Positions 15,328 to 59,974 are shown, numbered from the stretch's first letter. The stretch is DNA of 64,000 nt from a virus (IMGVR_UViG_3300025313_000944:1-64000), one strand, 5' to 3'. A program made the numbers and translations. The notes: a model not told the origin generated them from the sequence alone.

Positions 15328-15663
15328 CTAACTGGTTCTCACTCCTATATAATTTAATGCATCTGGAACTACTTCTACTAAATCCTTGCCGGGCACAACT
15401 ACCACATCACAATCCATAAATCTAATTATAGAGTGTGGCCTTTGGTAGACTTTTTGGGACATGTGCAACAGCAATTCTAGATAATTTTTATAACCCAAAA
15501 CGATATATTTAGGGGCTAAGTTGTGTTCATTCTGCAAGATACCCATCTGTTTAACGATACGATCTACAGTTCTCAAATAATTTAATTCTTGTTTCTCGCC
15601 GTTAACTTTTTTATTTAGTCGTTTCAATATGCTTATTGCCACTAACCACCAACCGTTTATCAT
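15328..15663 (-). CDS. hypothetical protein
   Basis: ORF following sortase; real start probably ~15627. Confidence 0.5.
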   Translation of the reverse strand: MINGWWLVAISILKRLNKKVNGEKQELNYLRTVDRIVKQMGILQNEHNLAPKYIVLGYKNYLELLLHMSQKVYQRPHSIIRFMDCDVVVVPGKDLVEVVPDALNYIGVRTS

Positions 15664-16003
15664 TCCCCAAGCAAGTAACTAACACCAAATCTGATCCCGA
15701 CAAAATTTTAGTAAACTTTGAATGTTCATGTTCCCCCAAGATATAGACTTCAGTCACCTCGTATTCTCTATTGGCAAACGTTATTATGTCACCAACCTCG
15801 ACTAAATGCAGATCGGAAAATATTCCAGGATTATGCCCGATGATATATTTCACCTGACCGTATTGGCACCAACAAGCTGACTTTTCCGGCACAACACAAA
15901 AGTTACCAGTTAAATAATCTATAGTCATAAATTCCCGTTGGCAGGGAGACACCGGTGTTATTATACTTCCGATGATCAACACCACTAAAATTATCATGTT
16001 CAT
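15611..16003 (-). CDS. minimal sortase-family transpeptidase
   Basis: hydrophobic N-terminus; IIGH...IFSDL..VEVGDII....YEV...LVLVTC.....RLVV, i.e. His-Cys-Arg triad in sortase order. Confidence 0.8.
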   Translation of the reverse strand: MNMIILVVLIIGSIITPVSPCQREFMTIDYLTGNFCVVPEKSACWCQYGQVKYIIGHNPGIFSDLHLVEVGDIITFANREYEVTEVYILGEHEHSKFTKILSGSDLVLVTCLGNDKRLVVSGNKHIETTK

Positions 16004-16005
16004 AT

Positions 16006-16034
16006 ATTATATCACATTCCAAGCTACTTGTCAA
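16006..16034 (-). promoter_or_regulatory. perfect-consensus sigma70 promoter for the sortase operon
   Basis: TTGACA-17 nt-TATAAT with extended -10 TG. Confidence 0.85.
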
Positions 16035-16188
16035 GTCCCAATTTCGAGTTAACATAATGTCTTGGGATTTAGATATAGCTTGCCTTAAGTCCTACAGTTA
16101 TATTCTATTTTTATTATCGAGCTTTTTAATCTAGTCGTGTTTGATTTCGCTACGCTCATCAAACACCTGTTTGTTGTTTGTTTTGTTC

Positions 16189-16214
16189 GTCCTACAAACA
16201 AGAAATAAAGTTTG
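16189..16214 (-). promoter_or_regulatory. candidate phage-specific promoter, copy 2
   Basis: 23/26 identical to 10831-10856. Confidence 0.55.
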
Positions 16215-16378
16215 GGCGTTTGGTGCATCAAAAGAATTAAAATTCATTAAAAATGCCAAACTGCTTGACATAATAAGTATTCTCATATTTTTATTCTTAT
16301 ATAAAGAAGAAATAAGAATTCATCTATAGAAAGCTGTTCAAGTTCTATAAGAACTTTATTTCTTGATAGTACAGAGAT

Positions 16379-16891
16379 GTGAAGAAAAATTCAAATCTCG
16401 GAGGTGTCGAGTTGATAATGCCAACGACTGTTCTTACAACTGTTGATTTTGCTGATACCCCGTTGGCAGAGTTTGGTGATTTGATAAATAGATATGCGGA
16501 AGAGAATTTGTTAGACCCATATATTGTTGCCGCAGTTATAATGGTTGAGAGCAGTGGTAAACCAGAAGCTTACAACTCAATGAGTAAAGCCACCGGCCTT
16601 GGTGGTATCATGCCGAGAGAAGCTGGTGCTGTGTTTGAGGATAGACCAACCATCGAAGAATTGAAAGACCCTGAAATTAACATAGCTTGGCTGTGTAAAA
16701 TCTTAGGGTATTACAGAAATAAATATCACGATATAGAAGCGGCTTTATACCAATATAGTGGTGGTTCAGTTTGGCCAGACAGAAAACAATTCAAGGAAAA
16801 ATATTTCAATCGAATAATGGGGTATTATGCTAAATATAGAACTGCACACGTCGATAGAGAGCCTGTTGCCGAAGTCTCCACAAATCCTTAG
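16379..16891 (+). CDS. SLT-domain lytic transglycosylase
   Basis: AAVIMVESSG, ATGLGGIMP, LKDPEINI, ALYQYSGG; start probably 16412 or 16418. Confidence 0.85.
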   Translation: MKKNSNLGGVELIMPTTVLTTVDFADTPLAEFGDLINRYAEENLLDPYIVAAVIMVESSGKPEAYNSMSKATGLGGIMPREAGAVFEDRPTIEELKDPEINIAWLCKILGYYRNKYHDIEAALYQYSGGSVWPDRKQFKEKYFNRIMGYYAKYRTAHVDREPVAEVSTNP

Positions 16892-18569
16892 TTACCCGGC
16901 TTTGGCCATAGACGTTGAGACTAATGGGCTTGATCCTTATCTTAACAATTTGGTATCAGTACAGATTGCCAACTCAGAGAATAACGATGTGCATATTTTA
17001 GATGTGCGCAAAGATAACTTTCAACAATTCTTCAATTGGTTGGCAGTCTATAAAGGAAAAGTCTATTTTCAAAATGCCAAATTCGATCTCAAGTTTCTCA
17101 AGACTGTGTTTAATGTTTTATATTTTGATCTATATGATACCATGATTGCGGAACGGCTTCTAACTTGTGGCTTGCAAGAACATGGTTCAGGTTTGGATGT
17201 TCTGGCTAAGAAGTATCTTAATATAGATATGGATAAAGGCATTAGAAATGAATTCACGCTGCCACTATTTGCCAACTTGGACTTTAGTGATGCACAACAG
17301 CATTATGCTGCCTTGGATGCTTGGGTATTGCCACGCATTGCAGAAATACAACAAAAGCAGGCCAAGCAGGATGGGTTGGAAAGAATATTCGATTTGGAGT
17401 TTAAAGTAATTCCGGTTGTTACCAAAGCTGAATTGCGGGGATTTAAATTAGATACCAAATTATGGAATGAAATCTATCAGGATGAGGTTCAAAAAGCCAA
17501 TAACCTGAAAACTAAGATGTTCGCCGTAGCTGGCAAGATATTTAATCCCAACAGTCCTGATCAAATAAAAGATGTGATGCATTCGCTTGGTTTGACTGTG
17601 CCGGTAGTTGGAGGCAAAGAAACAACCAAAGAAGAATTTATCTACAAGATAGATCACGACTTCATAAGGTTGTTGATAGATTATAGATCGGCCTTTAGGC
17701 GAGCTTCAACTTATGGTGAAGAATTTCTGAATAATATACACCCACTAACTGGTGCCATTCATGCTGATTTTGACCAAACCGGCACGGATACAGGCCGTAT
17801 GAGTAGTAAAAATCCAAATGCCCAAAATATACCTAAGCGCGGTGAGGGAGACGAAAGATTTAGGCGAGCTTTTATAGCTAGAGATGGTTGGAAAATAATT
17901 AGTTGTGATTACAATCAACAGGAGGTGCGTGTCCAAGCTGAATTATCTCGTGACCCGTTATTGATAGATATTTACGAAAAAGATTTGGACAGACATACAG
18001 TTACGGCCTCAAACAAGCTAGGCATACCTTACGATCAGGTAACTCTTGATCAACGAAGATTCTACAAGAATATGACTTTTGCACTATCGTACGGTTCAGC
18101 AGCTTGGAATATTGCCAATAAATTCAATATGTCTATTGAAGAAGCTGAGGAACAAATCAAAGATTATTGGAGTCTTTATAAGGTTCTTCAACAATGGTCG
18201 CGCAGGGAAGGTTTATTAGCCTTCGCTAAGGGTTATTCGGAGACTATGTGGGGCAGACGGCGGTACTACGATACCAAAGCTATGCGTAAAGATGAGGTCA
18301 TGCGACAAGGTGCCAACCATGCTGTCCAAGGGACCTCCGCTGATATGTTGAAACTTGCTATTTACCAATGTGATAAGCAATTTGTAGATAGACATTATAA
18401 TTCTACTCTGATAAATTTCGTGCACGATGAATTGGAAGCAGAAACTTTGAGTAATGAGGCTGAAGAGATAGCTTGGGTTTGTAAAGAGGAAATGGAGAAA
18501 GCAGGCCAAGAATTTGTGAAAATTATTCCCATTCCGGCGGAGGTAAAGATAGGGGGTCATTGGTTATGA
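16827..18569 (+). CDS. family A DNA polymerase with 3'-5' exonuclease
   Basis: DVET, NAKFD, YAALD; TGRMSS..PN.QNIP, DYNQQE.R, R..K...F...YG, N..VQG..AD, VHDE. Confidence 0.95.
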   Translation: MLNIELHTSIESLLPKSPQILSYPALAIDVETNGLDPYLNNLVSVQIANSENNDVHILDVRKDNFQQFFNWLAVYKGKVYFQNAKFDLKFLKTVFNVLYFDLYDTMIAERLLTCGLQEHGSGLDVLAKKYLNIDMDKGIRNEFTLPLFANLDFSDAQQHYAALDAWVLPRIAEIQQKQAKQDGLERIFDLEFKVIPVVTKAELRGFKLDTKLWNEIYQDEVQKANNLKTKMFAVAGKIFNPNSPDQIKDVMHSLGLTVPVVGGKETTKEEFIYKIDHDFIRLLIDYRSAFRRASTYGEEFLNNIHPLTGAIHADFDQTGTDTGRMSSKNPNAQNIPKRGEGDERFRRAFIARDGWKIISCDYNQQEVRVQAELSRDPLLIDIYEKDLDRHTVTASNKLGIPYDQVTLDQRRFYKNMTFALSYGSAAWNIANKFNMSIEEAEEQIKDYWSLYKVLQQWSRREGLLAFAKGYSETMWGRRRYYDTKAMRKDEVMRQGANHAVQGTSADMLKLAIYQCDKQFVDRHYNSTLINFVHDELEAETLSNEAEEIAWVCKEEMEKAGQEFVKIIPIPAEVKIGGHWL

Positions 18570-20401
18570 CACTATTAGATGAACTAAGGAAAGAATATAC
18601 CATTGCAACTCTCGAAGAGTTAGAACGAAAGTGGGCTGAAGAACCAACCAAGTCTTATTCGACTGGTGTTCCCAAGCTGGATAGAGATACCGGAGTTGGT
18701 GGCATTCCCGCAGGTAGGATAACTGAGATACATGGACCAGATCATTGTTTAGCTTGGGATTCATTTATTCTTTACAATATTATAGATAAGGGGGGACGCC
18801 GTCAAAATAAAAAAGGTGGAACTATACAGCACCTATATGAAAGATTCCATAAAATTTATGGCAACAAACGGAAAGAAACCAAAGATTCTGACTTTTATGT
18901 TGCTTCCATAAATGAAAAGGATTGTATAACGTTAAATAAAATAATGGATGTTGTTAAAACTGGAAACCAGAATTGTTATGAGGTGATAACAGAAAGAGGA
19001 CACAAATTAATCTGTACTAAGGAGCACCAATTTTATATTGGTAATGGTAAGTATGAAAAATTGGAAAAACTGGATGCTGGTAGCTGGGTTTTTATTCACG
19101 AAAATATACCCAATAGAAAGCATTATAAACAGATTAGATATTCAGAATTATTCGTAAAGTATCATCCATCTAATAGAATTAAGTCAATTACTGCAAATGA
19201 TAGGACTGGTTTTAAAAAATATAATTATATTAGATATAGGGTTAAAAATGCAAATATAATAGTAGAAGCAGACAGAAATGGATTAACATATAGAGAATAT
19301 ATTAACCTATTAAATAATGGTGTAAAAGAAGAAATAGATTCGCTATGGACAATTCCAACTGGGTTTGTGGTGCACCATAAAGATTTTAATTCAGGGAATG
19401 ATGATTTATCAAATCTTGAGCTAATGTTAGATGTGGAGCATCGCAGGTTGCACGCAATTCTCAGTCATAATAATTTAAGGTTTGTGGTAATACCAGACAA
19501 AATCAAGTCCATTAAATATGTTGGAGAAATGGAAACTTATGATATAAAATGTTTAGTTCCCTATAATAATTATGTTGCAAATAAATTCGTGGTACACAAC
19601 TCAGGTAAAACCAGTTTGGCTTTATCTACAGTGGCAGAATTGCATAAAGCAAATGCAGATGAACTAGCTTTATACATAGATGCAGAGAACGCTTTGGATT
19701 ATGAATATGCTTTAAAATTCAACGTGGACAGAAAAAGATTAATTGTCTTATATCCAGAGCAAGGTGAGGAAGTGTTTACTGTTGCGGAAAAGGCAGTTAG
19801 AAGTGGTGAATTTGCCATAGTGGTGGTTGATTCGGTGCCATCTGTTTCCCCAAGGAAGGAAATGGAGGGAGAAATAGGTGATGCCCACGTAGGATTAGTG
19901 CCTAGGTTGGTATCTCAGTTTTTGAGGAAGACTGCTTTTGCGGTGAGAGAATCAGGTGTGGCCGTTATATTTACCAATCAGATGAGAGACAGAATTGGTA
20001 GAGTACCATTGCCACCGGATTCACCTGGTGGTCGAGCTTTGAAGCACCATGCTTCTTTAAGAATATATCTATATAACGTAGAGCCGATTAAACAAGGTAA
20101 TGAAATTCTAGGCTCGAAGATTCAATACACTATAAAGAAGAACAAGGTTGGACCATCTTACGGCAATGGCGTGTTCGAGATTTGGAATGACAGAGGAATC
20201 TGCAAAGAGGCAGGATTGCTGGATATGGCGGTAGAATTAGGCATAATTCAGCAAAGGGGGGCTTGGTTTATTCACAACGAGAACACAATTGGTCAAGGCA
20301 GGTCTAGCACTATAAAAGCATTAAGTGAACCAGAATTATATAAAATTATATTACAGGAGTTAAAAGATGCAGAAAGGACCAACCACATGGAACACAATTG
20401 A
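18560..20401 (+). CDS. recA: RecA/UvsX recombinase with intein
   Basis: GGIPAGRITEI.GP, SGKT, IDAE, VVDSV, FTNQ.R, PGGRALK. Confidence 0.92.
   Translation: MVMTLLDELRKEYTIATLEELERKWAEEPTKSYSTGVPKLDRDTGVGGIPAGRITEIHGPDHCLAWDSFILYNIIDKGGRRQNKKGGTIQHLYERFHKIYGNKRKETKDSDFYVASINEKDCITLNKIMDVVKTGNQNCYEVITERGHKLICTKEHQFYIGNGKYEKLEKLDAGSWVFIHENIPNRKHYKQIRYSELFVKYHPSNRIKSITANDRTGFKKYNYIRYRVKNANIIVEADRNGLTYREYINLLNNGVKEEIDSLWTIPTGFVVHHKDFNSGNDDLSNLELMLDVEHRRLHAILSHNNLRFVVIPDKIKSIKYVGEMETYDIKCLVPYNNYVANKFVVHNSGKTSLALSTVAELHKANADELALYIDAENALDYEYALKFNVDRKRLIVLYPEQGEEVFTVAEKAVRSGEFAIVVVDSVPSVSPRKEMEGEIGDAHVGLVPRLVSQFLRKTAFAVRESGVAVIFTNQMRDRIGRVPLPPDSPGGRALKHHASLRIYLYNVEPIKQGNEILGSKIQYTIKKNKVGPSYGNGVFEIWNDRGICKEAGLLDMAVELGIIQQRGAWFIHNENTIGQGRSSTIKALSEPELYKIILQELKDAERTNHMEHN
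18746..19600 (+). mobile_element. 285-aa HNH-type intein in the RecA P-loop
   Basis: GPDH|CLAWDS...CTKEH...VVHN|SGKT; internal VHHKDFNSGNDDLSNL; AT-rich. Confidence 0.9.
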
Positions 20402-20900
20402 TTTATCTAATAAAAGATTTGGCAGATTGGTAGCATTAAAATTAGTTGGTATGAAGAAATACTGTGCCATGTGGTTGTGTCAATGTGACTGTGGAAATGA
20501 AAAAATAGTTAATGGTTACAATTTACGCAGCGGCAATACAATGTCTTGCGGTTGCTTACACAAAGAAAAATCTGGTGATGTAAATAGAAAACATGGCATG
20601 ACAGAAACCCCCGAATACACTACTTGGTGCAGTATGAAAGCCAGATGTTATAATCCAAATAACAAAGAATATAATTATTGGGGAGGCCGCGGTATAAAAG
20701 TTTGTGACGAGTGGTTAAATGATTTTGAATCGTTTTATAACCACATCGGTCCTAAACCTGGCCCTGGGTTCTCTATTGATAGAATTGACAATGAGGGCAA
20801 CTACGAGCCAGGAAATGTAAGGTGGGCAACTGCTTTGGAACAATCCAATAATAAACGGACTTATAAAAAAGGAAGGAAAAATAATGAAGAGAGTGTTTAA
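20367..20900 (+). CDS. HNH-family endonuclease
   Basis: WLCQCDCG, SCGC, GGRGIKVC, IDRIDNEGNYEPGNVRWA. Confidence 0.8.
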   Translation: MQKGPTTWNTIDLSNKRFGRLVALKLVGMKKYCAMWLCQCDCGNEKIVNGYNLRSGNTMSCGCLHKEKSGDVNRKHGMTETPEYTTWCSMKARCYNPNNKEYNYWGGRGIKVCDEWLNDFESFYNHIGPKPGPGFSIDRIDNEGNYEPGNVRWATALEQSNNKRTYKKGRKNNEESV

Positions 20901-21153
20901 TGTGACAAGGGTGTATCCGTTGGGAGCCTACAAAAACGTAAAGTACGAAAACACGTTAGAAGTTGAAGGAGAAGAACTGGAAGAATTGTTAAATAAGTAC
21001 AATGGCCCGATTGGTGTTTTTGAAAATTTAACCACAGAAATTTACCAAGCCTTTTTCAAACACGTTGATATGGCATTATCTTTTGAAGCCGCTCCAACAA
21101 TTGATGCTAAACGTGAAGCTTTTGAAGAATATCTAAACAATAAAGGAGAATAA
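20884..21153 (+). CDS. hypothetical protein
   Basis: 89 aa, AAGGA RBS. Confidence 0.55.
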   Translation: MKRVFNVTRVYPLGAYKNVKYENTLEVEGEELEELLNKYNGPIGVFENLTTEIYQAFFKHVDMALSFEAAPTIDAKREAFEEYLNNKGE

Positions 21154-21156
21154 GAA

Positions 21157-21360
21157 ATGAATCTTGAGTGGTTGAAGGCATTGTTGGTTAGCCGCAAATT
21201 CTGGCTGGCTTTTATAGCTACGCTAGTTGCAGTCGTGCTGTACATTCAGGGAGCCATTGACGCTGAGACTTTGATTAATGCTATCGTAGCTTTGATGGTT
21301 GTCTTGGTTGGTTCTATCGCCGCCGAAGATATTGCAACTAAACTTAATGGTAAGAAATAA
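21157..21360 (+). CDS. holin-like two-TM protein
   Basis: SRKFW motif, two hydrophobic segments, basic tail. Confidence 0.65.
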   Translation: MNLEWLKALLVSRKFWLAFIATLVAVVLYIQGAIDAETLINAIVALMVVLVGSIAAEDIATKLNGKK

Positions 21361-21372
21361 GGAGAACTAGAA

Positions 21373-22167
21373 ATGGCATTTTTTAACGAGACTCAATCAG
21401 GCACGAAAAAACGAAGAAATTGGCAAGATACATTCGTAATGTTGACGCCGGAACACCCCAGTGTGGTGCAGATTATTGAGCCAAAATATGCCTCTATTTG
21501 GAGACATTGGATACCTCAGGCTAGACGAAAGAATGGTGGGCGTGGTATCTATGTGGTCTGTCCAGGTATGGATATTTGTCCGATCTGTATCCGCAACAAG
21601 GAATTGCCGGATCGAGACCATCCTGACTACATCGGTGCCAGCAAGCGTTATGTAATCAATGTCTTGGATTTGACGCCGAGAAAGCAGTGCCCTCTGTGTG
21701 AGACAGTTAGTTATACTAATAACTGTTCTTATTGTGGTACTGAGCTTAAGGAAGTTGAGAAGATAGCACCTGAAGTTCGGTTGTTGGAGCGCGGTCGGGA
21801 ATTGTTTGACCAATTGAATACCATCGAAGATACTATCGTTAAATCTTACGATCCTAAAGACCCAACCAACGATCCAGAAATTTTTGATTATTCAAAGTAT
21901 AGTCCGGGTGACGATGTTCCAGTAGGTATCATGCACTATCCAATTACATTGAAGCTCAATGAGCAAACTAAGAAACCTACGCCGGTTGCTGGGCAGATCA
22001 ATAACCTCAATTGGCGGGATTGGCAGGAACAATTGATCAATTCAGAGGAAGCTTACATTGAGTTGACCCCACCTGAAATCGTAGAACTTCTGAGGGGTGG
22101 TTCCCTCTCAGAACTCTTAAAAGCACGCAACCAAGAAGATACCAGTGAAGAAGAATTAGGTCTGTAA
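21373..22167 (+). CDS. gp32-like single-stranded DNA-binding protein
   Basis: HW..VC....CPIC, RYVINVLD, additional Zn ribbon, acidic C-tail. Confidence 0.65.
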   Translation: MAFFNETQSGTKKRRNWQDTFVMLTPEHPSVVQIIEPKYASIWRHWIPQARRKNGGRGIYVVCPGMDICPICIRNKELPDRDHPDYIGASKRYVINVLDLTPRKQCPLCETVSYTNNCSYCGTELKEVEKIAPEVRLLERGRELFDQLNTIEDTIVKSYDPKDPTNDPEIFDYSKYSPGDDVPVGIMHYPITLKLNEQTKKPTPVAGQINNLNWRDWQEQLINSEEAYIELTPPEIVELLRGGSLSELLKARNQEDTSEEELGL

Positions 22168-22171
22168 ATTT

Positions 22172-22564
22172 GTGAGGGGAGAAGGGAAACTTTCTCCCCC
22201 ATTGGAGATTGAAATGAACTACAGGAAAATGTTAGAGATATCTCCTAAGCCTTACCATACGCTGATGCAAGCGTATACAGAGATTACCAACGAGGTAATT
22301 TCACAACAATTGATGCAAAAACTTCTTAAGGAATACGATGCTAATTTAATACTAGATGCCATAGAATTGATGCGAGGTAGGATTGTAGACAAGCCGGTGC
22401 CTTATTTGGTTGGTATTTGTAGAAACTTGCGGAGTAAACAAGTTGAAAAGTTTGTGGAAAGCAAACGTGTAGATACACTCGTGGATACGTTTCTGGACGA
22501 AAAAACCAGAACTGATCGACCAATTTTGAGGAGACCGTTGTTACATGTCGAATCTACCATATAG
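22172..22564 (+). CDS. hypothetical protein, possible helicase loader
   Basis: coupled to dnaB; PYLVGICRN segment. Confidence 0.45.
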   Translation: MRGEGKLSPPLEIEMNYRKMLEISPKPYHTLMQAYTEITNEVISQQLMQKLLKEYDANLILDAIELMRGRIVDKPVPYLVGICRNLRSKQVEKFVESKRVDTLVDTFLDEKTRTDRPILRRPLLHVESTI

Positions 22565-23828
22565 TCTAGAGGCGGAAAAAGCTGTATTAGGGTCGTTATT
22601 GATTGATAGTAGTGTAACTTTTTTGGCTACACCATTATTAGAGGTCAAATTCTTTTGGGAAAAGTCACACCAGCTTATCTACCAAGCCATCTTGGACGTG
22701 ATAACTGAGGGTATTCCCGTAGATTTCGTGACGGCTAGCAGCCGCTTGCAGCAGGTAAATAAACTAGACGAGGTTGGTGGTATAAATTACTTGACTGAAT
22801 TGATGCAATCCACACCATCTAGTTTGCACGCCGAGTATTATGCCAGCATAGTTAAGAATTATCATCGTTTAAGATCGTTGATAACCACTGCTCACCGCAT
22901 AATCAAGAATGCTGAGAGTGCTGGACCAGACGAAGTAGCCTCAGCTCTAGATGAATCATTAGATGCTTTATATGGTGTCTTCGGAGAAAAAGAACGCATA
23001 AAGAATTCATCGTATATGATGGATGAATTCCTGAACCATTTCGAGAAGAGGTACAACAATCCAAGCCAGACTGATATTTCTACCGGCTTCTTGGAGTTAG
23101 ATGCTGTCATTGGTGGCTACATACCAACCGATTTGATCGTGATTGCGGGCAGACCCTCGTGGGGCAAGACAGCCTTTATGATGAATTCAATGTTAAAGCT
23201 AAGCAGGGCTGGTATTCCCAGTGTCTTATTCGCTTACGAGATGTCTAGAGTTCAGACTGAACAAAGGTTTATAGCTTTAGAATCTGGCATAGCCTTGCAA
23301 AAAATAAAAACAGCTTCAGGCTTGAGCCAAACAGAATTAGATAAAGTAGTTCAGGCTGCCAGTGATTTTACCAATTATCGGTTGTACATTGACAACCACA
23401 CCGCCGGTGACGTATATTATCTAACTTCGGCTATCCGGCAATACGTGCAACAATTTGGCATCAAAGTAATCTTCATAGATTATTTGCAGAGGATACCCAC
23501 GTTGGGGCAGGACTTAACCCAAGAGACAGGTAAGATTACCACTATCCTTAAAACTTTGGCTACCTCACTTGGTATAACCATAGTCTTGGTTTGTCAGTTA
23601 AATAGAGATATAGAGCGCCGCCAAGGTAAACCAATACTTTCAGATTTGCGGCAGAGTGGAAGAATAGAAGAAGATAGTGATGTAGTTCTGTTTATCCACC
23701 GCGATCCAGATGGAGACACACCAGAAGATACAGAGGTAATCATTGGTAAAAATCGTAATGGTCCCATTGGTAGCTTTACACTTTATTTTGACCAACAAAC
23801 TACAAAATTTATAGGTCGTGAGAGATGA
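22545..23828 (+). CDS. dnaB: replicative helicase DnaB
   Basis: LPYSLEAEKAVLG, AGRPSWGKT, IDYLQ, QLNR, SDLRQSGRIEED, KNRNGP. Confidence 0.96.
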   Translation: MSNLPYSLEAEKAVLGSLLIDSSVTFLATPLLEVKFFWEKSHQLIYQAILDVITEGIPVDFVTASSRLQQVNKLDEVGGINYLTELMQSTPSSLHAEYYASIVKNYHRLRSLITTAHRIIKNAESAGPDEVASALDESLDALYGVFGEKERIKNSSYMMDEFLNHFEKRYNNPSQTDISTGFLELDAVIGGYIPTDLIVIAGRPSWGKTAFMMNSMLKLSRAGIPSVLFAYEMSRVQTEQRFIALESGIALQKIKTASGLSQTELDKVVQAASDFTNYRLYIDNHTAGDVYYLTSAIRQYVQQFGIKVIFIDYLQRIPTLGQDLTQETGKITTILKTLATSLGITIVLVCQLNRDIERRQGKPILSDLRQSGRIEEDSDVVLFIHRDPDGDTPEDTEVIIGKNRNGPIGSFTLYFDQQTTKFIGRER

Positions 23829-24283: not shown

Positions 24284-24482
24284 GATTAAAGATATAGATA
24301 TGCTTGAACCATACTCCATCGGGCTGGGTTTGGTAACTCTAACAATACCAACATTTGTAGCTTGGCAATTGGCAGAGGATTTGAAACAGGCTTTATTGGA
24401 TGAATATGAGATGGTTCCTGGCATACCTACGCCGAACAATCCACAGCCAGCACCTAAGCTTAAACTTAAGGAGTAATACACA

Positions 24483-25282: not shown

Positions 25283-25284
25283 TT

Positions 25285-26793: not shown

Positions 26794-26941
26794 TGTGTGG
26801 AAATATGAACGTCGGGAAAGAAAATTAGAATCTCGTAAGAAGAGAATACCTAAACATAGTAAGGAACTCGGTGAACTATATGCTAATGCGATACTCAAAC
26901 GAGCCAAGGTGAAGCACCGCAAAAGTCGGGGAAACTCAGGC

Positions 26942-29336: not shown

Positions 29337-29337
29337 A

Positions 29338-38728: not shown

Positions 38729-39019
38729 TCAGGCATTCCCATCGTAATTTGGTGTTGGGGTGGGTGTTACCGGAACCACCGGCTTGGCTGCTTGTGGAGG
38801 CCAAGTGAACCCCACAGATGGCTGCTCCCACCATTCAGCTTTCTGCAATTCTAGAATGTAGTTATCACATAGTGATTGGTGTCCGGTGTCGGCCATGCAC
38901 TTGTCCCAAATTCCGCGGTAGTATTCTTGCTCCATTTTATTTTCTGTCAGCCTACCCAACAGTAAGCCCAAGATTATACCCAAAACCACAGTGATGATTG
39001 ATACTTTACCGAATTTCAT
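38729..39019 (-). CDS. membrane-anchored exported protein
   Basis: N-terminal TM, two Cys, TPTPTP tail. Confidence 0.6.
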   Translation of the reverse strand: MKFGKVSIITVVLGIILGLLLGRLTENKMEQEYYRGIWDKCMADTGHQSLCDNYILELQKAEWWEQPSVGFTWPPQAAKPVVPVTPTPTPNYDGNA

Positions 39020-49325: not shown

Positions 49326-49336
49326 TTTTATTTTCC

Positions 49337-49960: not shown

Positions 49961-50070
49961 TTTAGCACCCCCTCAGAACCAAGAGTATTATTACAAGTAC
50001 CACCAAATATAGAAACCATAGGTAGAGTTGTCCTTCGTTTAATCTCATTTTATTTTCTCCTTTTATTCTT

Positions 50071-51153: not shown

Positions 51154-51163
51154 GTTTTGCTCC

Positions 51164-51625: not shown

Positions 51626-51694
51626 TTTAATCTCCTTGAAATACTGGTCCAAAAGCGGACCGTGAAATAGATTAACCCGATTAACAAGGCTATC

Positions 51695-52468: not shown

Positions 52469-52531
52469 GATAACCCTCCTGAGGGGCTAATCAAAATTTG
52501 TAATTTCTTACTTGACATAACCTCTGGTGGT

Positions 52532-52819
52532 TTATTCTTCCTCGAAACCAGCCTCGCAGGTTTCACAGAGGTTGTTGTCGTTTAGTGGTTCGAGTTCACC
52601 ACATTCCTCACATAGCTGTATTTCCCAACTCTCCACCGTATCCTTACCCACCACCAGAAGATTATCATAGTATTCAGGGTCTTGGAATATTACCAATCCT
52701 TCCGGTGTAATGCACGCAGGTAATCTATCTGACTTTATATTTGCGCGGATAGCTTGGTCGGTGCTCTCCACCGGCCTAATTTTTTGGGAATGAATAACCT
52801 CATGGTGCCATTTAAACAT
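52532..52819 (-). CDS. small C-terminal Zn-finger protein
   Basis: CEECGELEPLNDNNLCETC; AAGGAG RBS. Confidence 0.6.
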   Translation of the reverse strand: MFKWHHEVIHSQKIRPVESTDQAIRANIKSDRLPACITPEGLVIFQDPEYYDNLLVVGKDTVESWEIQLCEECGELEPLNDNNLCETCEAGFEEE

Positions 52820-53045
52820 TAGATTTCTCCTTTTTAACCACAATATTTTCTTCTTTTAGAAACTCTAAGATGCTATCGGCCAAGCCTATGTTCGAGGCGA
52901 TCTGCACATCGGTTACTACCATACAGTCAGTAGACCAAGTGGTTACTCCGAAGAAAAATTGAATCTTGAGCATTTGGTCTATATCCTCTAGGGCTTGTCG
53001 CAACCCTTGGCGGTCGTCGGCTTGTATAGCTGCAATTAGTATCAT
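52812..53045 (-). CDS. hypothetical protein
   Basis: 77 aa, GGAGG RBS. Confidence 0.5.
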   Translation of the reverse strand: MILIAAIQADDRQGLRQALEDIDQMLKIQFFFGVTTWSTDCMVVTDVQIASNIGLADSILEFLKEENIVVKKEKSNV

Positions 53046-53070
53046 TCTACCTCCATTTTTAGTAAGGCTT

Positions 53071-53256
53071 TCATAAGGTCATGAACCCACAAATTCTAAT
53101 AAGAACCCCAAGGCATGCCATAAACCAGAGTGCCGCCAACCAAGCTAGTAGAGGGTAACCAGTGGATGCGGCTAAAAATAGCGGGGCGACAGTTATTGAA
53201 ACAAACAAGCCTAGTGCTAGCCCGGCAGCAGCACCTTTACAGACATGTTTCAACAT
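53071..53256 (-). CDS. small two-TM membrane protein
   Basis: AGGAGG RBS, hydrophobic. Confidence 0.55.
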   Translation of the reverse strand: MLKHVCKGAAAGLALGLFVSITVAPLFLAASTGYPLLAWLAALWFMACLGVLIRICGFMTL

Positions 53257-53265
53257 TTTAACCTC

Positions 53266-53634
53266 CTATAGTACAAACATAACTTCCACCTCGGTAGGTG
53301 GTCGAATAATAGTTACACGTTCTTTGGGTGCAGGCAACAGCGGTCGGTCGAATTGGTACTCAGGGTTGATGATAGTTTCCCGCACCAAACCCATCACGAA
53401 GTAATCCCGCCGCAAGATGTCAGGTGTATCCCGTACCACCTTGGAGTTTTGCAAAGCGTATTCGATTAGCTTGTTGAACAGTTCCCAGTTGGTAGACGAG
53501 TACACCAACTGGAACTCTTTACCCTCGTTGTAGACGTGGGTGACCTTCTGACCATCCTCGAAAATATCGGCTGCGAATGAGAGAACATCCTTGGTCTCTT
53601 CTGGATAGGTTCTCAAGTTTCTGATGTTGTACAT
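53266..53634 (-). CDS. hypothetical protein
   Basis: 122 aa, GGAGG RBS. Confidence 0.6.
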   Translation of the reverse strand: MYNIRNLRTYPEETKDVLSFAADIFEDGQKVTHVYNEGKEFQLVYSSTNWELFNKLIEYALQNSKVVRDTPDILRRDYFVMGLVRETIINPEYQFDRPLLPAPKERVTIIRPPTEVEVMFVL

Positions 53635-53733
53635 GTTACCCCTCCAAAAACTTTCTCAGTTGCCCAAGTTTGGCGTATACAAAAACTTGGGTTGATCCAC
53701 CTCATTTAGCAACTTTGTTAACATTTTACCCTC

Positions 53734-54069
53734 CTAATCTGGGTAACTTGGGAAGTAGTTTGTGTCCAAGCTGTGCTCGATCACCATGTATCTAGCAACC
53801 TGTGCTTGCTGTGCTTGGCCCCTGTAGACAAAACCATCCCAAGCCACGACCCCATAGTAGTGAGGTCTTACTTCTGTGATTTCCTTGACCGACGGTGGGT
53901 CACCCGTCTTGTCATACCTACTACCACGATCATACCCTATGCCGTGGCTCAAGAATATCTCGGCAGCCTCTTGCACCGAGTCCGCCAAGACAATCGGATC
54001 GTGGTAATAATTATGTGGGTCGTCCCTATCTACATCAGTACTTCTGCTCATGAAAACGTAGAGATTCAT
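53734..54069 (-). CDS. hypothetical protein
   Basis: 111 aa, GAGGT RBS. Confidence 0.6.
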   Translation of the reverse strand: MNLYVFMSRSTDVDRDDPHNYYHDPIVLADSVQEAAEIFLSHGIGYDRGSRYDKTGDPPSVKEITEVRPHYYGVVAWDGFVYRGQAQQAQVARYMVIEHSLDTNYFPSYPD

Positions 54070-54317
54070 TTTTATACCTCTTTATCCCCTAATAGATATT
54101 ACCAGTGTGCTATTCTCAACTACCCCCCAAGCCACATCTTTTAATTCAAATTCTAAGGGTGGAAAATAGCCATTCCTAAAAGACAGCAGGTACTTGGAGG
54201 GCTTGGTTAATTTGGCGTGAAAAACATCGAAGGTGTTGAAATCTGCGTAGACTTCTTTACCTAAGAATTGGTCCAATAGTTCATGTGTAATTTCTTGTGA
54301 CATTTTACATCTTTTAC

Positions 54318-54521
54318 TTATTTCCAAGCTTGGGTAGGAAATATAGCCACCGCTGAGGTGACCGTTGCTTTTTCCTGTTGGGCAATAGCATACGCATATA
54401 CTTTGGTGAATGTAACACTGTGCCTACCAAACCCAGTTTCAAACTCATCCAACCGAAAATCGTAGAATAGCGGAGTTTTACCTTTATATTTGACTATTGC
54501 GTATAGCTTTATTTGTGCCAT
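54318..54521 (-). CDS. hypothetical protein
   Basis: 67 aa, AAGGAGG RBS. Confidence 0.55.
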   Translation of the reverse strand: MAQIKLYAIVKYKGKTPLFYDFRLDEFETGFGRHSVTFTKVYAYAIAQQEKATVTSAVAIFPTQAWK

Positions 54522-54523
54522 TT

Positions 54524-54816
54524 TTATTCTGCCTCCTTATAGTTAACACAATCCTCACAGATGCCATTCTCATTTAGCGGTTGAATATCATCACAATTGT
54601 TGCACATTCTGAATTCGATGTGTTGGTAGGTATTCGTAGTTATATCGACTGCTGTGAGACCCCAAGGGTTGTCAGCATTGGCTACCAACAGCTTGTCTCC
54701 CACCCGAATTGGTGCGTCATAGCCAACATCCGTTATTTTCTTCAGTGCGGCTTCAAAGGTTGGAGTAAGACTTTGCTTTCCGCCAGAACGTCGTAGTGGT
54801 GCTTAAATTTTGCCAT
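54524..54816 (-). pseudogene. frameshifted paralogue of 52532-52819
   Basis: MAKFKHHYDVLAESKV.. stops after 24 codons; -1 frame continues to CNNCDDIQPLNENGICEDC. Confidence 0.65.
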
Positions 54817-55083
54817 TTCCGTTTTTATTCTCCTTGAAAAATTTTTGCCTAAATAATTGGCCCTGTTACCTCGAAACCGAGGCCGGTGAGAAACACAAAA
54901 TCCTAGCGCAACCACGGTCCGGTCAAGAACCTAGGTCGGCTAGGATTTCATTAGAAACCACAATTGATGGTTCCGAGATTGGTGGTAGCAATCTTGGGTG
55001 GTACTGACCCCACATAATTCATATCTCTCAGGTTCTACGATAATTTGGTGCAAACTGGTTAATTCCAGTGTCTAACTGTAGGA

Positions 55084-55112
55084 ATTGTAGCACGAGGTAC
55101 TTTGGCTGTCAA
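55084..55112 (-). promoter_or_regulatory. sigma70-type promoter for leftward operon
   Basis: TTGACA-17-TACAAT with TG extension. Confidence 0.75.
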
Positions 55113-55144
55113 GCAGTAGATTTACCTATAGCAATCTATAGCTT

Positions 55145-55350
55145 AACTAGCTGGTAGCATACCTAGGCAGGGAGAAAGCACATATATAATGAAACACGGT
55201 AATTAACCGCAAATTGCGTATTCGGTGCACTAAATTAAATTAACTGGGTGACATACCAAGGCAGGGCGTGAAGCATATATAATGAAGGCCGGTGAACGAC
55301 CGTGATTTACGTATTAGGTACGTTATTTTTACCTTGAGCGGTAGCATATC
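55145..55350. repeat. degenerate ~94-bp tandem repeat, just over two units
   Basis: GGTAGCATACC-like boxes at 55153, 55247, 55340; AGGCAGGG..AAGCA(CA)TATATAATGAA in both full units. Confidence 0.75.
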
Positions 55351-55403
55351 TTGGACTGCTGACCAGCTCTAGGTAGCCTACCCAAACTCGGTGAAACTGG
55401 TTC

Positions 55404-55432
55404 TTGACAATGCACTCACCGTGTGCTATAGT
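55404..55432 (+). promoter_or_regulatory. sigma70-type promoter
   Basis: TTGACA-17-TATAGT with TG extension, preceded by GGTGAAACT. Confidence 0.8.
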
Positions 55433-55501
55433 AGACCTAGTGATTGGAGTATTGGCAACCCACCCCTAGCTGGGTGGAACTAGCTCATTGGAGGTGAGCA
55501 A

Positions 55502-55723
55502 ATGAGAACGATTAGATGCCCTCGCTGCGGTAACTTTCACACGATTGGGCAGAATAGTGCCGACTTGATCTGCCCCACCTGTAGAGACCGAGAGTACCAA
55601 GAAACGTTGAGTCACCGAGTCGTCCCTCGCAAACCAGGGTTGTATTTTCTGTCAGCCCCGGTCGGTTGGGTTCGTATCAATAACGATGACAACCAAGATG
55701 AGGTGAATAATGTCGAAATTTGA
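55502..55723 (+). CDS. zinc-ribbon protein
   Basis: CPRCG..CPTC; GGAGGTG RBS. Confidence 0.6.
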   Translation: MRTIRCPRCGNFHTIGQNSADLICPTCRDREYQETLSHRVVPRKPGLYFLSAPVGWVRINNDDNQDEVNNVEI

Positions 55724-56627
55724 TGATCTCATCAATATGGCGGTAAAACTTGGTTACTCAATAGAAGCTGAGGAAAAAAAGAGAAGCAAAGCGGCTGCGG
55801 TTAGCCGCAAGGCCGGCAAGAAGAAGCGCCAGCCCGGTGTCAGAAAGTTTGGTGAGGATACTTACCTAACCAGTAAGCTTCTCTACAAGATAATGGATAG
55901 AACCGACAAAACTGTCCATTATGTGGCGGGCATAGGTGCCGCCGAAAAGTTGGTGGAAGGGTTAAAGACTGAGGAACACAACCTAGTTCTATTTACCACT
56001 AACACTTCAGGTGACAAGCTGGTGGCACCTAAGCACTACCAATGTATCGTATCCAGCAACGGCAAAGCCGGTTATGCTTCCTTCTTCCGACCAACAACCG
56101 AGTGGCGGCGGGCAAAAATCCACAATAAAGATGGAGCACCTGAATGGGGATTAATACAAATCCTGCCTTGGCCAATAGCACCGGGTGGGTTCTATTTCCT
56201 GCTAAAAGACATTCAGGGCGGGGAGAAAGAAGTCACCGAGGAAGAGCAACGGAAAGTTATAGTTGCCGGTCCTTACCGTGTGGCTGAGGAAAAATATTTG
56301 CAGGAATTGTCCAAAGGGGATAGGTTGGTAATCGAGGACATCTTGGATGACCGGGCTTTGTTGGACGCCGTTGAATTGGTTCTGAATTGCCACTTCTCGG
56401 AATTGTCCACTAGGAGGGCACTGGACATCCTACGCAAAGGTACGACCAGATATGCTCATGACCCGACCGAAATAGCAGAAGGTTCCAGCCGGGCTCAGAG
56501 AGACCAGCAGACGATAGAGAACCAGCAAACGGTGATCGACCGGCAAGCTAAAGAGATAGAGAGATTGAGTCTTATAGTCACCCAACAACTGGGAATAATC
56601 CAAGGTCTGGGTGAAACTACTGCTTGA
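55710..56627 (+). CDS. hypothetical early protein with C-terminal coiled coil
   Basis: 305 aa, GAGGTG RBS. Confidence 0.65.
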   Translation: MSKFDDLINMAVKLGYSIEAEEKKRSKAAAVSRKAGKKKRQPGVRKFGEDTYLTSKLLYKIMDRTDKTVHYVAGIGAAEKLVEGLKTEEHNLVLFTTNTSGDKLVAPKHYQCIVSSNGKAGYASFFRPTTEWRRAKIHNKDGAPEWGLIQILPWPIAPGGFYFLLKDIQGGEKEVTEEEQRKVIVAGPYRVAEEKYLQELSKGDRLVIEDILDDRALLDAVELVLNCHFSELSTRRALDILRKGTTRYAHDPTEIAEGSSRAQRDQQTIENQQTVIDRQAKEIERLSLIVTQQLGIIQGLGETTA

Positions 56628-56652
56628 CACTGAGCTTACCCGATGCTAATCT
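56624..56652 (+). promoter_or_regulatory. sigma70-type promoter
   Basis: TTGACA-17-TAATCT with TG extension, preceded by GGTGAAACT. Confidence 0.65.
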
Positions 56653-56725
56653 AAGACTGTAGCAGTAGACAGGCCGGTAAGCACCGGCCTAATTTATTGA
56701 TTTTACCAACAGGAGGGTAAATCAA

Positions 56726-57316
56726 ATGGCCGACAAACAACAGAATAGTGGTGACGGACAAGCCACCAAGGTCTCGGTGAGACCCCTGAAATATGCCTAC
56801 AAACCCATCGTGCCTGGGTTTGTAGGCATATTTCAGGGTCCCACCGACGACGACCTGATGGGCAAGGAAATCCGCGAGCTTACCTTGGTTCTGCCACCGA
56901 CCGAGAAGGGGGCAGAGGCTACCAGAATCGAATTCTGGAAGGATAGCAAAGAGGTAAAGCAGGACGGCAAGTTGCTTCTACCGCCTCACTACAATGAGTG
57001 GTTGCGCTTGCTGGTAGCCCACGCGGTGGCTGGGTGGACGATGAAGGGTTCTGGTTACGCTTTGAGTGTGGCCATGAACACCGAGTCCTTCAAAGAGGAC
57101 ATCAAAAAGCTGGTTGACCGCGGCGCGGTGGTGGAAGCCCGGTACGCCAAGCAGGAAAAGTGGATTTATGCACCGTTCAAGTCTCTTTACGAATACGCGG
57201 TGCTCCACGCCAGCCTGCTTAAGACCACCGCCGAACGGTGGCCAGCCGAGACAAAGGTGGCCGAGGAGATTATCTCTGGCGAACCTGAGCGCGTTGAAGT
57301 CGAGTTTTCTCTGTAG
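56726..57316 (+). CDS. hypothetical early protein
   Basis: 196 aa, AGGAGG RBS. Confidence 0.65.
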   Translation: MADKQQNSGDGQATKVSVRPLKYAYKPIVPGFVGIFQGPTDDDLMGKEIRELTLVLPPTEKGAEATRIEFWKDSKEVKQDGKLLLPPHYNEWLRLLVAHAVAGWTMKGSGYALSVAMNTESFKEDIKKLVDRGAVVEARYAKQEKWIYAPFKSLYEYAVLHASLLKTTAERWPAETKVAEEIISGEPERVEVEFSL

Positions 57317-57503
57317 TAACCTGCTGGTGCTTGGGACTGGTTGTCCCCGCCACTACACAAATCACTTTGATAGCGGTAGGACATAGCCAGAAATGGTTGT
57401 GTCCTGCTCTGAGCCTTACACTTAGTTTTTTGGGTTGTTTAATTAGCACCTAAGTGTAAGGCTCAAGGTAGGACATAATCAACCTTAAAGGAGGTGAAAC
57501 TGA

Positions 57504-57920
57504 ATGACTATAAATACAACCAATGCCAAGGTACTTAAGGCTCGTAAGAGAATGAGCAGGTCAGATTTTGGCCACCGAAAATTGGTAGTCGAGTGTGCAG
57601 TTTGTGGTGGTCGCAAGAGGTTTAGATCACCTAGTAATCTTTGTGAAGCCTGCAAATACCTGCTGAACCAAGGCAGCTTTGATGAGAAGTTGCAAGCCAT
57701 GGTCACCAACAGACAGGTGGTCCGACGCCGCAAATTTAGGAGCAGAAAGTTTGCCCAGCCACTACCAGTCAAGCAGTATAAATCAGTATTCAGGGCATAT
57801 GTACCAACAGTAGAGGTACAAGGCATACCAATAGTGGTGGGCCAAGACCAGTGGGATGAGTTATTGGCCACTAATGATGGCGGTAACTGGTCAACCTTTC
57901 AACCCAATGGAGGTGAATAA
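57504..57920 (+). CDS. basic Zn-finger protein
   Basis: CAVCG..CEAC, Arg/Lys-rich; AAGGAGGTG RBS. Confidence 0.65.
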   Translation: MTINTTNAKVLKARKRMSRSDFGHRKLVVECAVCGGRKRFRSPSNLCEACKYLLNQGSFDEKLQAMVTNRQVVRRRKFRSRKFAQPLPVKQYKSVFRAYVPTVEVQGIPIVVGQDQWDELLATNDGGNWSTFQPNGGE

Positions 57921-57922
57921 AG

Positions 57923-58129
57923 ATGTGGTCATGCCCAACACACCCGCAAATTAGGTTTGCTGCCAACAGGCCAGACACCTGCCAGCAAATAGTATCAACC
58001 GTATGTGACAAGTGTCAAGAAGCAAACCCGGTAAGTCAGTTTGGGTTTCACCCCTATGGTTGTGGTGGTAATGTAGTAGCTATTCGCTGTAGGAGAAAAT
58101 TGGAGGTAGATAAAGATGAAGGAGATTGA
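57923..58129 (+). CDS. small Cys/His-rich protein
   Basis: 68 aa, GGAGGTG RBS. Confidence 0.55.
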   Translation: MWSCPTHPQIRFAANRPDTCQQIVSTVCDKCQEANPVSQFGFHPYGCGGNVVAIRCRRKLEVDKDEGD

Positions 58130-58379
58130 CGAGTACAATTCTAGGTTTATCAGTGGTGTAGGCATTGCCGCCAGCAGAGTCAGGTTGTTGCTGAAAGAAT
58201 GCTTACCAATCCACGGCTCATTGGTCTACAACGGCTTGGTGGCAGAGTGCCCCAAACGGACGCCTTACCAGTCGTTCAGGTATTGGACACAAGCCTTGCG
58301 AGCGGTTGAAGGTCTGCACGCGGCACCGGCACTTCTGGAACGTCTCGGAACCGATGCGGTCCACCAGATGTCTGATTAG
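58116..58379 (+). CDS. hypothetical protein
   Basis: 87 aa, GGAGGT RBS. Confidence 0.5.
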   Translation: MKEIDEYNSRFISGVGIAASRVRLLLKECLPIHGSLVYNGLVAECPKRTPYQSFRYWTQALRAVEGLHAAPALLERLGTDAVHQMSD

Positions 58380-58555
58380 ACTAAAAACATAGGTAAAATA
58401 GCTATTTCAAGCGAAAAAACCGGGGGAAATGGGAAGGTTTCCCCCACCGCCATTATCCAGCTTTTATCTCATTGTTCACCTCCTTTCTTGAGCCCACCTA
58501 GGGTCTTGCCAACCTTAGGTGGGCATTTTCTTTTTATAGAAAGGAGGTACACGAA

Positions 58556-58651
58556 ATGCCCGTAATCGTTATTGTAGTAATCTTGGTAGCCATTGTAGTT
58601 GTGCCAATCGCCGCAGCCTTGCTCGATGGCTACCTGTTGGGAGGTGAATAA
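58556..58651 (+). CDS. 31-aa hydrophobic peptide, not in ORF track
   Basis: AAGGAGGT RBS; MPVIVIVVILVAIVVVPIAAALLDGYLLGGE. Confidence 0.6.
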   Translation: MPVIVIVVILVAIVVVPIAAALLDGYLLGGE

Positions 58652-58750
58652 AGTGGACTTGGTGACTGTTCTTTCATATTTGGTAGTATTGGAGGCCGTC
58701 ATATTCCTAGCTTACGCGGCTGACACGTGGCTAGAATGGTGGTACCGCTA

Positions 58751-59086
58751 ATGCAATACCTCAAGGTAGCAATGGTACTCGTAGCCACTTGGAGGTTTTA
58801 CCGACTCGTGGCGGTGGACACCGGACCTAAATGCCTGCTGCGTAAGTTTAGGTGTTGGGTGGGTGTCAGGTACAACGGGGATTGGTCGGAGTGGAGCACC
58901 GAGAATGGGTCATTGGCTGAAATGATCACGTGCTGTAAGTGTGCTCCGGTGTGGTGGGGGGCAGCCTTTACACTCTTGTATCTATTTGCATCAGATACCT
59001 TGTTCTTCCTTATAACCCTACCATTGATAGCTAGTGCGTTCACCTTGGTGTTTGAAAACATTGTGTATGCACCAAGGGAAAAATAA
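58751..59086 (+). CDS. DUF1360-like membrane protein
   Basis: ATWR..RLV..D.GP....R..ITC..C..VW. Confidence 0.65.
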   Translation: MQYLKVAMVLVATWRFYRLVAVDTGPKCLLRKFRCWVGVRYNGDWSEWSTENGSLAEMITCCKCAPVWWGAAFTLLYLFASDTLFFLITLPLIASAFTLVFENIVYAPREK

Positions 59087-59113
59087 TAGGACAACCTTTA
59101 AGGAGGTACTCAA

Positions 59114-59974
59114 ATGTCTAGCAAGCACAACCGAATATTTGTGGTACTGGTGATCTTGGCTCTCTTATTCAGTTTGGCATCGGTGGCCTACGCCGAAAAA
59201 CCAGACAATGATGGGGAACACGGTAACTCCGGCCAACACGATCCCGACGATGATGGCCGAGGCCCCGACCGGGGTGAGGGTAAGCCGGATGACACCGATG
59301 GTGATCACAACAATGGTTCAGGCAATGACCCCGATCATTGCGACGACAACGAGGGTCGGTGTGGAAATGACGGAGATGAAGGTGGACCCGAAGCTACCGA
59401 GGAACCACTTGCTGACGAGCCTACCCAAGAAGCTACTCAGGAACCTACACCAGAAGAGACAAGTGTGCCTGAGGTGACGGAGCAGCCAACTGAGGAGGCT
59501 ACGCCTGAAGTTACACCTTTGCCGGAGGAGACACCCACACCTGAGGTAACTGAGCAGCCTGAGCTTCCGCCACCTTACACACCTACTGAGCTACCACAAC
59601 CACCACAGACACCCAGAGGTGGTATCCCAGATCGAGACTGCTGGCCAACCGATGCCGATAGTTACACTTGTGGTGGTGACGAAGATACCGGACACAACAA
59701 TAATGACACCTTTGTTCCGGTGATCGACGAAGTCGTGGTAGAACAGGGCTTGGAGCCGTTGCCTATGGCGGGTGTTACAGAATTACCTACCTTGGGTTAT
59801 GGACCTCCGCCAAATAGCTTGTACTTGAATACGGTGTTTGTCTTAATTGCCTTGGCTTTTTGGGCGGGATCGCTGACAACCACCGTTGGTATCTACTTCT
59901 TAGCGCCGCGGCCTAAAGCCACCAAGCAGGAAATGCCTTACCTCGTTCTAGATAACGGTGATGATCTCTGGTAG
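59114..59974 (+). CDS. secreted acidic Pro/Thr/Glu-rich surface protein with LPxxG-TM-basic tail
   Basis: signal peptide ending AYA; Asp/Gly/His-rich head; PTEEATPEVT stalk; LPMAG, LPTLG; hydrophobic segment; PRPKATK. Confidence 0.75.
   Translation: MSSKHNRIFVVLVILALLFSLASVAYAEKPDNDGEHGNSGQHDPDDDGRGPDRGEGKPDDTDGDHNNGSGNDPDHCDDNEGRCGNDGDEGGPEATEEPLADEPTQEATQEPTPEETSVPEVTEQPTEEATPEVTPLPEETPTPEVTEQPELPPPYTPTELPQPPQTPRGGIPDRDCWPTDADSYTCGGDEDTGHNNNDTFVPVIDEVVVEQGLEPLPMAGVTELPTLGYGPPPNSLYLNTVFVLIALAFWAGSLTTTVGIYFLAPRPKATKQEMPYLVLDNGDDLW

Follow-up and report, generated by a model that had tools for sequence, protein, structure and literature searches.

Sortases have, to our knowledge, long been regarded as purely cellular enzymes. 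Prophages are known to encode LPXTG surface proteins, such as staphylococcal SasX, that depend on a sortase of the host for their anchoring. A preprint of October 2026 (Yuan & Chen, bioRxiv 10.64898/2026.10.24.761521) counts 24 genes for sortase B in huge phages of the gut. In each case the gene immediately upstream encodes a substrate with a PXTG sorting signal as well as a signal peptide; the preprint also states that sortases were previously undocumented in viruses. Here we analyse a sortase gene and a candidate substrate gene in IMGVR_UViG_3300025313_000944:1-64000, a stretch of 64,000 nucleotides (the window) that corresponds to bases 1-64000 of an 87,332-bp IMG/VR virus record (linear, rated approximately 90% complete). 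An earlier note on this DNA had proposed that the phage sortase is dedicated to a protein of 286 amino acids (aa), which it would cut at LPMAG or LPTLG and attach covalently to the infected cell's wall for exclusion, masking or adhesion. Both open reading frames (ORFs) are found where that note had placed them. Together with the promoter that precedes the sortase gene they are:

15611-16003, minus strand: cysteine transpeptidase of the sortase family, of minimal size (130 aa, or 128 if counted from the second ATG), by Pfam, family profile, AlphaFold (AF2) model and structure match.
16006-16034, minus strand: perfect sigma70-type promoter, with TTGACA, a spacing of 17 nt and an extended TGnTATAAT; 12 of 12 consensus positions.
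59114-59974, plus strand: secreted acidic low-complexity protein of 286 aa, with a signal peptide, a Pro/Thr/Glu-rich (P/T/E) stalk, LPMAG, LPTLG, one C-terminal transmembrane segment and a 22-aa tail.

In systems of the SasX type the phage contributes a secreted surface protein with a canonical LPXTG signal and the enzyme is that of the host, whereas here the phage brings the enzyme itself and the candidate signal is non-canonical. With the phages of the preprint (10.64898/2026.10.24.761521) the present one shares a phage-encoded sortase with an intact His/Cys/Arg triad, and the use proposed there, display of proteins on the infected cell, is also the one that had been put forward for this locus. 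However, the enzymes of the preprint belong to class B, are related to Bacillota SrtB and are encoded by phages of more than 200 kb from animal guts, whereas ours is an unclassified 130-aa barrel from an 87-kb phage found in soil and groundwater sequencing runs. Moreover, the substrate gene is adjacent in the preprint, whereas the sole candidate here lies 43 kb away and carries a non-canonical motif. The preprint was the only report on phage-encoded sortases found in the literature, and its supplementary tables could list more viral sortases. The caution over novelty in the earlier note was therefore apt, since a phage sortase B with its substrates had already been described. While a phage sortase is a kind already known, what is new here is a different lineage, a minimal size without an anchor, a mid-sized environmental phage and the absence of an adjacent client. 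The case thus extends phage sortases to mid-sized soil and groundwater phages and to an unclassified lineage of bare catalytic barrels under a strong promoter.

The phage carries a genuine sortase. The 130-aa ORF contains the sortase triad to which the earlier note had pointed (His57 in IIGH, Cys111 in LVLVTC and Arg117 in RLVV), and Pfam PF04203 (Sortase) matches residues 48-123 with 32.9 bits against a gathering score of 26.6. In a search of the whole record this family was present in a single copy (32.7 bits). When 1.84 billion representatives were searched exhaustively with phmmer, just 13 proteins came up at E ≤ 0.001, all of 125-187 aa save one outlier of 3190 aa (P0003). The motifs GH(N/S)PG.F..L and TC.G..RL are carried by the 12 relatives that were fetched, and G56, H57, F62, L65, G71, Y81, T110, C111 and R117 are invariant in the 12-sequence alignment. 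Comparing the 12-sequence family profile with the PDB gave 63 distinct sequences at E ≤ 1, the best of them B. anthracis SrtA (2.3e-15), and among the 60 matches listed all are sortases by name or entry. In the profile alignment His57, Cys111 and Arg117 fall in the catalytic His/Cys/Arg columns of B. anthracis SrtA. The AF2 model, guided by the 12-sequence alignment, has a mean predicted local distance difference test score (pLDDT) of 92.2 and a predicted template modelling score of 0.84. All Foldseek matches listed are sortases, with template modelling scores of 0.52-0.67 by query, as are the best structural matches from VIA-align (Z 11.5-13.8, with 106-117 residues aligned across model residues 1-130). 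Pfam, the family profile, the AF2 model, Foldseek and VIA-align thus all give a sortase, which answers the concern, raised with the original proposal, that the fold might turn out to be another one. The enzyme is quite probably active as well; if so, it would rank with the smallest sortases in nature and be of interest for protein-ligation technology.

Assignment to a class was less straightforward. The NCBIfam scores of the protein are far below the respective cut-offs (18.4 against 158 for class GN, 15 against 165 for class D, 14.7 against 160 for class C and 20.8 against 39 for the general model sortase_fam), and members of the family score about equally weakly with the models for classes D, F, C, GN and E. 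No class B model matched the window protein at E ≤ 1 or the 12 family members at E ≤ 0.01, a missing row that does not in itself exclude class B, and no entry with sortase B in its title appears among the PDB matches listed. Judged by these scores, the lineage is best placed outside the curated sortase classes A-F or GN, and it is treated here as unclassified. PHROGs gave no family for the sortase, a scan of IMG/VR with the single protein returned no relatives of it, and a word-based protein search recovered its own cluster only. As for the 3190-aa metagenomic protein P0003, six separate stretches of it match sortase residues 90-123, the Cys-Arg end of the barrel (E = 3.9e-8); it may contain repeated sortase-like modules inside one giant protein.

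Compared with solved bacterial sortases (B. anthracis SrtA 2kw8, C. perfringens SrtD 4d70, S. suis SrtC1 3re9 and S. aureus SrtA 1t2w), the phage enzyme has the same fold, strand order and catalytic positions at 14-25% identity. Unlike them, it has a very short stretch between Cys111 and Arg117. Cellular sortases also carry an N-terminal transmembrane or signal segment and a linker before strand beta1, whereas the phage sortase begins approximately five residues before beta1. With the small 'GHNPGVFS' sortases (P0002-P0013; G001, G002 and G003, of which more below) it shares the motifs GHNPG(V/I)FS.L and (V/I)TC.G..RL, a length range of 125-187 aa and 28-35% identity, although most of these relatives have an N-terminal transmembrane segment or signal peptide, which the window sortase lacks.

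The N-terminus had initially been read as a membrane anchor. Indeed, residues 3-21 are very hydrophobic (Kyte-Doolittle mean 2.4 over 19 aa), and there is no lysine or arginine ahead of this run. However, alignment, model and superposition all show that the stretch is beta1-beta2 of the catalytic barrel and not a separate anchor. In the alignment, residues 1-20 fall in the beta1-beta2 columns ('LxIPxIxL..PV') of longer sortases that have a separate transmembrane segment and a linker further upstream. Residues 7-11 and 14-20 become strands of the barrel in the AF2 model (pLDDT 79-96), and the soluble catalytic domain of S. aureus SrtA (residues 67-206) superposes on residues 2-126 of the model. 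A longer ORF is ruled out by an in-frame TAA one codon upstream of the ATG. As modelled, the enzyme is an eight-stranded catalytic barrel alone, without a separate anchor or linker, and at 128-130 aa the sortase is among the smallest of its family. The hydrophobic beta1 region might conceivably have a dual role and serve as an anchor too. A location outside the cytoplasm is favoured because of this unusual hydrophobicity, the export-type N-termini of two related phage enzymes (a charged stretch followed by a hydrophobic one in the closest relative, P0002 from G001, and a clear signal peptide in the sortase of G002) and three cysteines (Cys21, Cys36 and Cys44) that are common to the window sortase and P0002, and which suggest disulfides.

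The promoter is the sole exact TTGACA-N17-TATAAT of the 64-kb window, where shuffles predict 0.04, and its -10 element ends 2 nt before the ATG at 16003; on reading the sequence no Shine-Dalgarno sequence was found before the sortase start. With the -10 element in this position, transcription would start at approximately 16001-15999, and the second ATG (15997) would probably serve as the start of translation. The sortase mRNA is therefore probably leaderless, or nearly so, and its product would be the 128-aa form. Since the only perfect sigma70 promoter of the window stands ahead of the sortase, strong expression by the host RNA polymerase is expected, and the gene is probably expressed both strongly and early.

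Related sortases were found in three IMG/VR contigs, G001, G002 and G003. G001 (94,133 bp, 54% GC) is rated 100% complete and the other two records are rated at 42% and 14%; G002 and G003 (loci L003 and L004) have identical ORFs wherever both were scanned. The neighbourhoods of these relatives differ. The sortase gene of G001 sits in a glycan-modification cluster, among sulfatase, methyltransferase and glycosyltransferase genes, whereas that of G002 lies in a tail module, directly after a tail protein gene that encodes 949 aa. A homologue of the 286-aa protein is missing from all three records. Nor was any ORF of at least 80 aa found in which a signal-like N-terminus goes together with an LPxxG-type motif and, after it, a hydrophobic stretch at the C-terminal end, in a survey that covered all of G001 and G002 and, for G003, the 14-kb locus L004. 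Phage sortases of this lineage thus lack a recognisable phage-borne client, which favours host proteins as the substrates.

We therefore prefer to see the window sortase as an auxiliary envelope-remodelling enzyme of an 87-kb tailed phage that acts mainly on host proteins, a reading to which we assign a probability of roughly 0.5. The sortase would be made early from a leaderless message via the host RNA polymerase, and would then cut or transfer proteins with C-terminal sorting signals in the infected cell, its clients being chiefly host-encoded. If the enzyme is active, this would mean that phages can rework the wall proteome of their host without a client protein of their own. Several points weigh against such a role. 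The host origin of the clients is argued by elimination; the sortase has neither a classical signal peptide nor a classical anchor, and its route to the wall is not evident. Furthermore, no other ORF in the 87-kb genome joins a signal peptide to an LPxxG-type motif and a transmembrane segment at the C-terminal end, as the 286-aa protein does. At least two LP..G motifs in the 30 residues before the transmembrane segment occur in approximately 0.02% of composition-preserving shuffles and at least one in 2-3%, figures that overstate the significance because the motif was chosen after the sequence had been seen. In the crude gene set as a whole LP..G occurs nine times in 26,458 aa.

These last observations bring us to the 286-aa protein itself. 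Its anatomy is much as the earlier note had described it, namely a signal peptide ending in AYA (with basic residues and a hydrophobic core, by eye and by hydropathy, and an N-terminal hydropathy of 3.68), a head rich in Asp, Gly, His and Asn, the P/T/E stalk, LPMAG at residue 216, LPTLG at residue 224 and a hydrophobic stretch that follows the motifs from approximately residue 236 (Kyte-Doolittle 1.93 over 17 aa). The 'basic tail' of that description stands in part: the 22 residues do include three basic ones, but also four acidic ones, and no two of the basic residues are consecutive. The gene looks real, with a strong Shine-Dalgarno sequence (AAGGAGG, 6 nt ahead of the ATG) and a terminator-like hairpin just 3' of it at 60001-60022. 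The usual Thr of LPXTG at position 4 is missing from both motifs, yet the solved complexes of S. pyogenes SrtA include, according to the entry title, one with an LPALA peptide, so that Thr at this position is not needed in every sortase. The phage sortase B enzymes with substrates of their own in the preprint (10.64898/2026.10.24.761521) likewise speak for a pairing, and the 286-aa protein may be a client of the sortase.

Nevertheless, we regard a sortase dedicated to this protein as unlikely, as distance, sorting-signal criteria, domain models and distribution in related phages all fail to support the pair. The two genes are not only 43 kb apart but also on opposite strands and in separate transcription units, whereas the substrate gene of the preprint is always the one immediately upstream. 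A published sortase-substrate screen (PMC4155245) places the motif 17-45 aa from the C-terminus and asks for two or more basic residues in a row. The tail of the 286-aa protein departs from two of the four criteria of that screen, since 71 residues separate LPMAG from the C-terminus and 63 separate LPTLG from it, and no basic residues are consecutive. No curated sorting-domain model matches the last 82 or 124 residues (none in NCBIfam at E ≤ 10, none in Pfam at E ≤ 1), in a search that was run without a positive control and in which short domains are easily lost to HMMER filters. The C-terminus was also considered as another kind of sorting tag (IPTL-type), for which no NCBIfam model matched.

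The distribution of the two genes points the same way. The earlier note had looked to their co-occurrence in related phages as a check, and a homologue of the 286-aa protein is present in none of the three other viral records with a related sortase; as far as the comparison applies, this independent distribution goes against the pairing. The 286-aa protein is in fact an ORFan. PHROGs gave no family for it, there is no Pfam or NCBIfam family match either, and neither the IMG/VR scan nor the word-based protein search found a homologue beyond its own 90% cluster. Within that cluster the truncated variant P0016 reads IPTLG where the 286-aa protein has LPTLG. Lastly, no anchor that would hold the sortase at the membrane is evident. 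We read the 286-aa protein, from its sequence features, as a separately transcribed type-I membrane protein. A more elaborate form of the display idea joins two loci, in which an early 128-aa sortase from a leaderless message, held at the membrane by its overly hydrophobic beta1 region, would recognise a non-canonical, doubled LPxxG signal and build a coat of the 286-aa protein on the infected cell. This seems to us quite doubtful; were it true, it would provide the smallest working sortase together with a new sorting motif.

It is similarly improbable, in our view, that the anchorless mini-sortase works outside the classical pathway altogether, as a cytoplasmic or post-release site-specific protease or ligase, for example in the maturation of virions or tail fibres. 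Such a role would fit a protein that maps in its entirety to the soluble catalytic domain of solved sortases and that has no charged residue before its hydrophobic run, and the position of the related gene in G002, directly after a tail protein gene, is in keeping with it. However, the two related phage sortases with export-type N-termini (P0002 of G001 and that of G002) argue for a site beyond the cytoplasm, as would the disulfides suggested by the three cysteines shared with P0002. The hydrophobicity of the N-terminus, moreover, goes far beyond that of a usual beta1 strand, and LP.TG does not occur at all in the 26,458 aa of phage proteins. Finally, that the gene is a passenger or a decaying host copy with no role in infection is highly improbable, as a protein that is shorter than any characterised sortase, lacks the usual anchor and has so few close relatives (13 at E ≤ 0.001 among 1.84 billion) nonetheless keeps its triad and six further positions invariant, gives a confident and complete model, is preceded by the best promoter in the window and recurs in near-identical copies in runs of several studies.

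The comparison between records drew attention to a second, smaller protein. The window's record (G000) and G001 share just four proteins, two of which adjoin in G001, namely the sortase and a small secreted cysteine protein:

38729-39019, minus strand: small secreted Cys protein, whose homologue in G001 lies directly upstream of the sortase gene (L002, 9624-9968).

The family of this protein has an N-terminal transmembrane segment, a core of the form EYYRG(I/L)(W/Y)D.C...C...W(W/Y)EQPS..W.WP and a short variable tail. It was found in seven viral records including the window's (also L015-L018 and L020) and has no Pfam or PHROG family. We considered whether it might be the true partner of the sortase, and rejected it: none of the five further phage records with the small Cys protein (four fragments and one with terminal repeats) holds a sortase, and the family has no conserved C-terminal signal. 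In L015 its gene lies, by eye, a few genes before terminase-like genes.

Relatives of the sortase also turned up in contigs that are filed in a bacterial genome or look cellular. MEWP01000063.1 (L011; 94,133 bp), filed in a Zixibacteria metagenome-assembled genome (MAG), has the same length, coordinates and sortase match as IMGVR_UViG_2708742752_000007 (G001), and probably represents a phage genome that was sorted into a bacterial MAG by binning. With a whole phage contig binned in this way, its presence in the Zixibacteria MAG is weak evidence on the host. The cellular-looking contig L014 has two tandem genes for transmembrane-anchored sortases at 3542-6087, flanked by prfB on one side and ftsE-ftsX on the other. 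They encode 257 and 547 aa; the GHNPGIFSRL motif of the phage enzyme is present in the first, and L013 shows the same pair. No substrate gene lies within reach at either L013 or L014, and the related anchored sortase of L014 serves as a host lead only.

Around the 286-aa gene the window has the following further features:

58727-59086, plus strand: DUF1360 multi-transmembrane membrane protein (Pfam DUF1360, 26 bits against a cut-off of 21; phrog_781, function not known).
Approximately 58556-58651 and 58653-58751, plus strand: two short hydrophobic ORFs of approximately 31 aa with good ribosome-binding sites, identified by eye only.

The DUF1360 gene lies directly upstream of the 286-aa gene and is probably co-transcribed with it. 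Strong hairpins at 58492-58524 and 60001-60022 bound the region, and 58556-59974 is likely to be a four-gene membrane-protein operon that is closed by the 286-aa gene; an ORF on the minus strand at 58469-58702 is probably spurious. Contigs from four runs that cover 58700-60100 listed no differences from the window, and one piece (X5) has a single other letter. Several contigs end near 59772-59798, in the stretch that encodes the motifs, and we conclude nothing from this gap.

The remainder of the record is that of a tailed phage with a GC content of 42.9%. PHROGs matches in the window comprise a portal protein, large terminase, exonuclease, DNA methyltransferase, HNH endonuclease, SLT-type transglycosylase and UvsX-like recombinase, and the phage record also has a PolA gene. 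Those with assigned positions are:

5128-6651: portal protein (PHROGs).
6861-9476, minus strand: large terminase (PHROGs).
14737-15213: HNH endonuclease (PHROGs).
16379-16891, divergent from the sortase: SLT-type transglycosylase (PHROGs and Pfam SLT domain).
18560-20401, plus strand: UvsX-like recombinase (PHROGs).

The sortase gene has as its neighbours the HNH endonuclease, the divergent SLT transglycosylase and an ORF of 111 aa that matches no family. At 871 and 613 aa respectively, the large terminase and the UvsX-like recombinase far exceed their usual length. Extra matches lie in the interior of both, a thymidylate-synthase or PhoH-like stretch for the terminase and an HNH stretch for the recombinase, which suggests inteins or inserted homing elements.

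No cultured or deposited phage gave a DNA or protein match to the sortase region, and searches with PolA and the portal protein returned only distant matches (<31% identity) from phages of many hosts, and so no host clue. The nearest named clusters in a protein atlas are labelled Saccharimonadota, again as a lead only. Shine-Dalgarno cores precede 66 of the 135 crude gene calls against a background of 8%, a frequency that does not discriminate between hosts. Fifteen studies contributed runs with near-identical DNA, under the labels soil, groundwater and sediment metagenome; two of the samples may be those from which the record itself came, and none of the runs listed is of RNA. In addition to the perfect promoter of the sortase gene, the window has three near-consensus sigma70 promoters with 11 of 12 matches each, at 55404-55432 (plus strand), 55112-55084 (minus strand) and 61157-61185 (plus strand), which are likely to mark other early transcription units.

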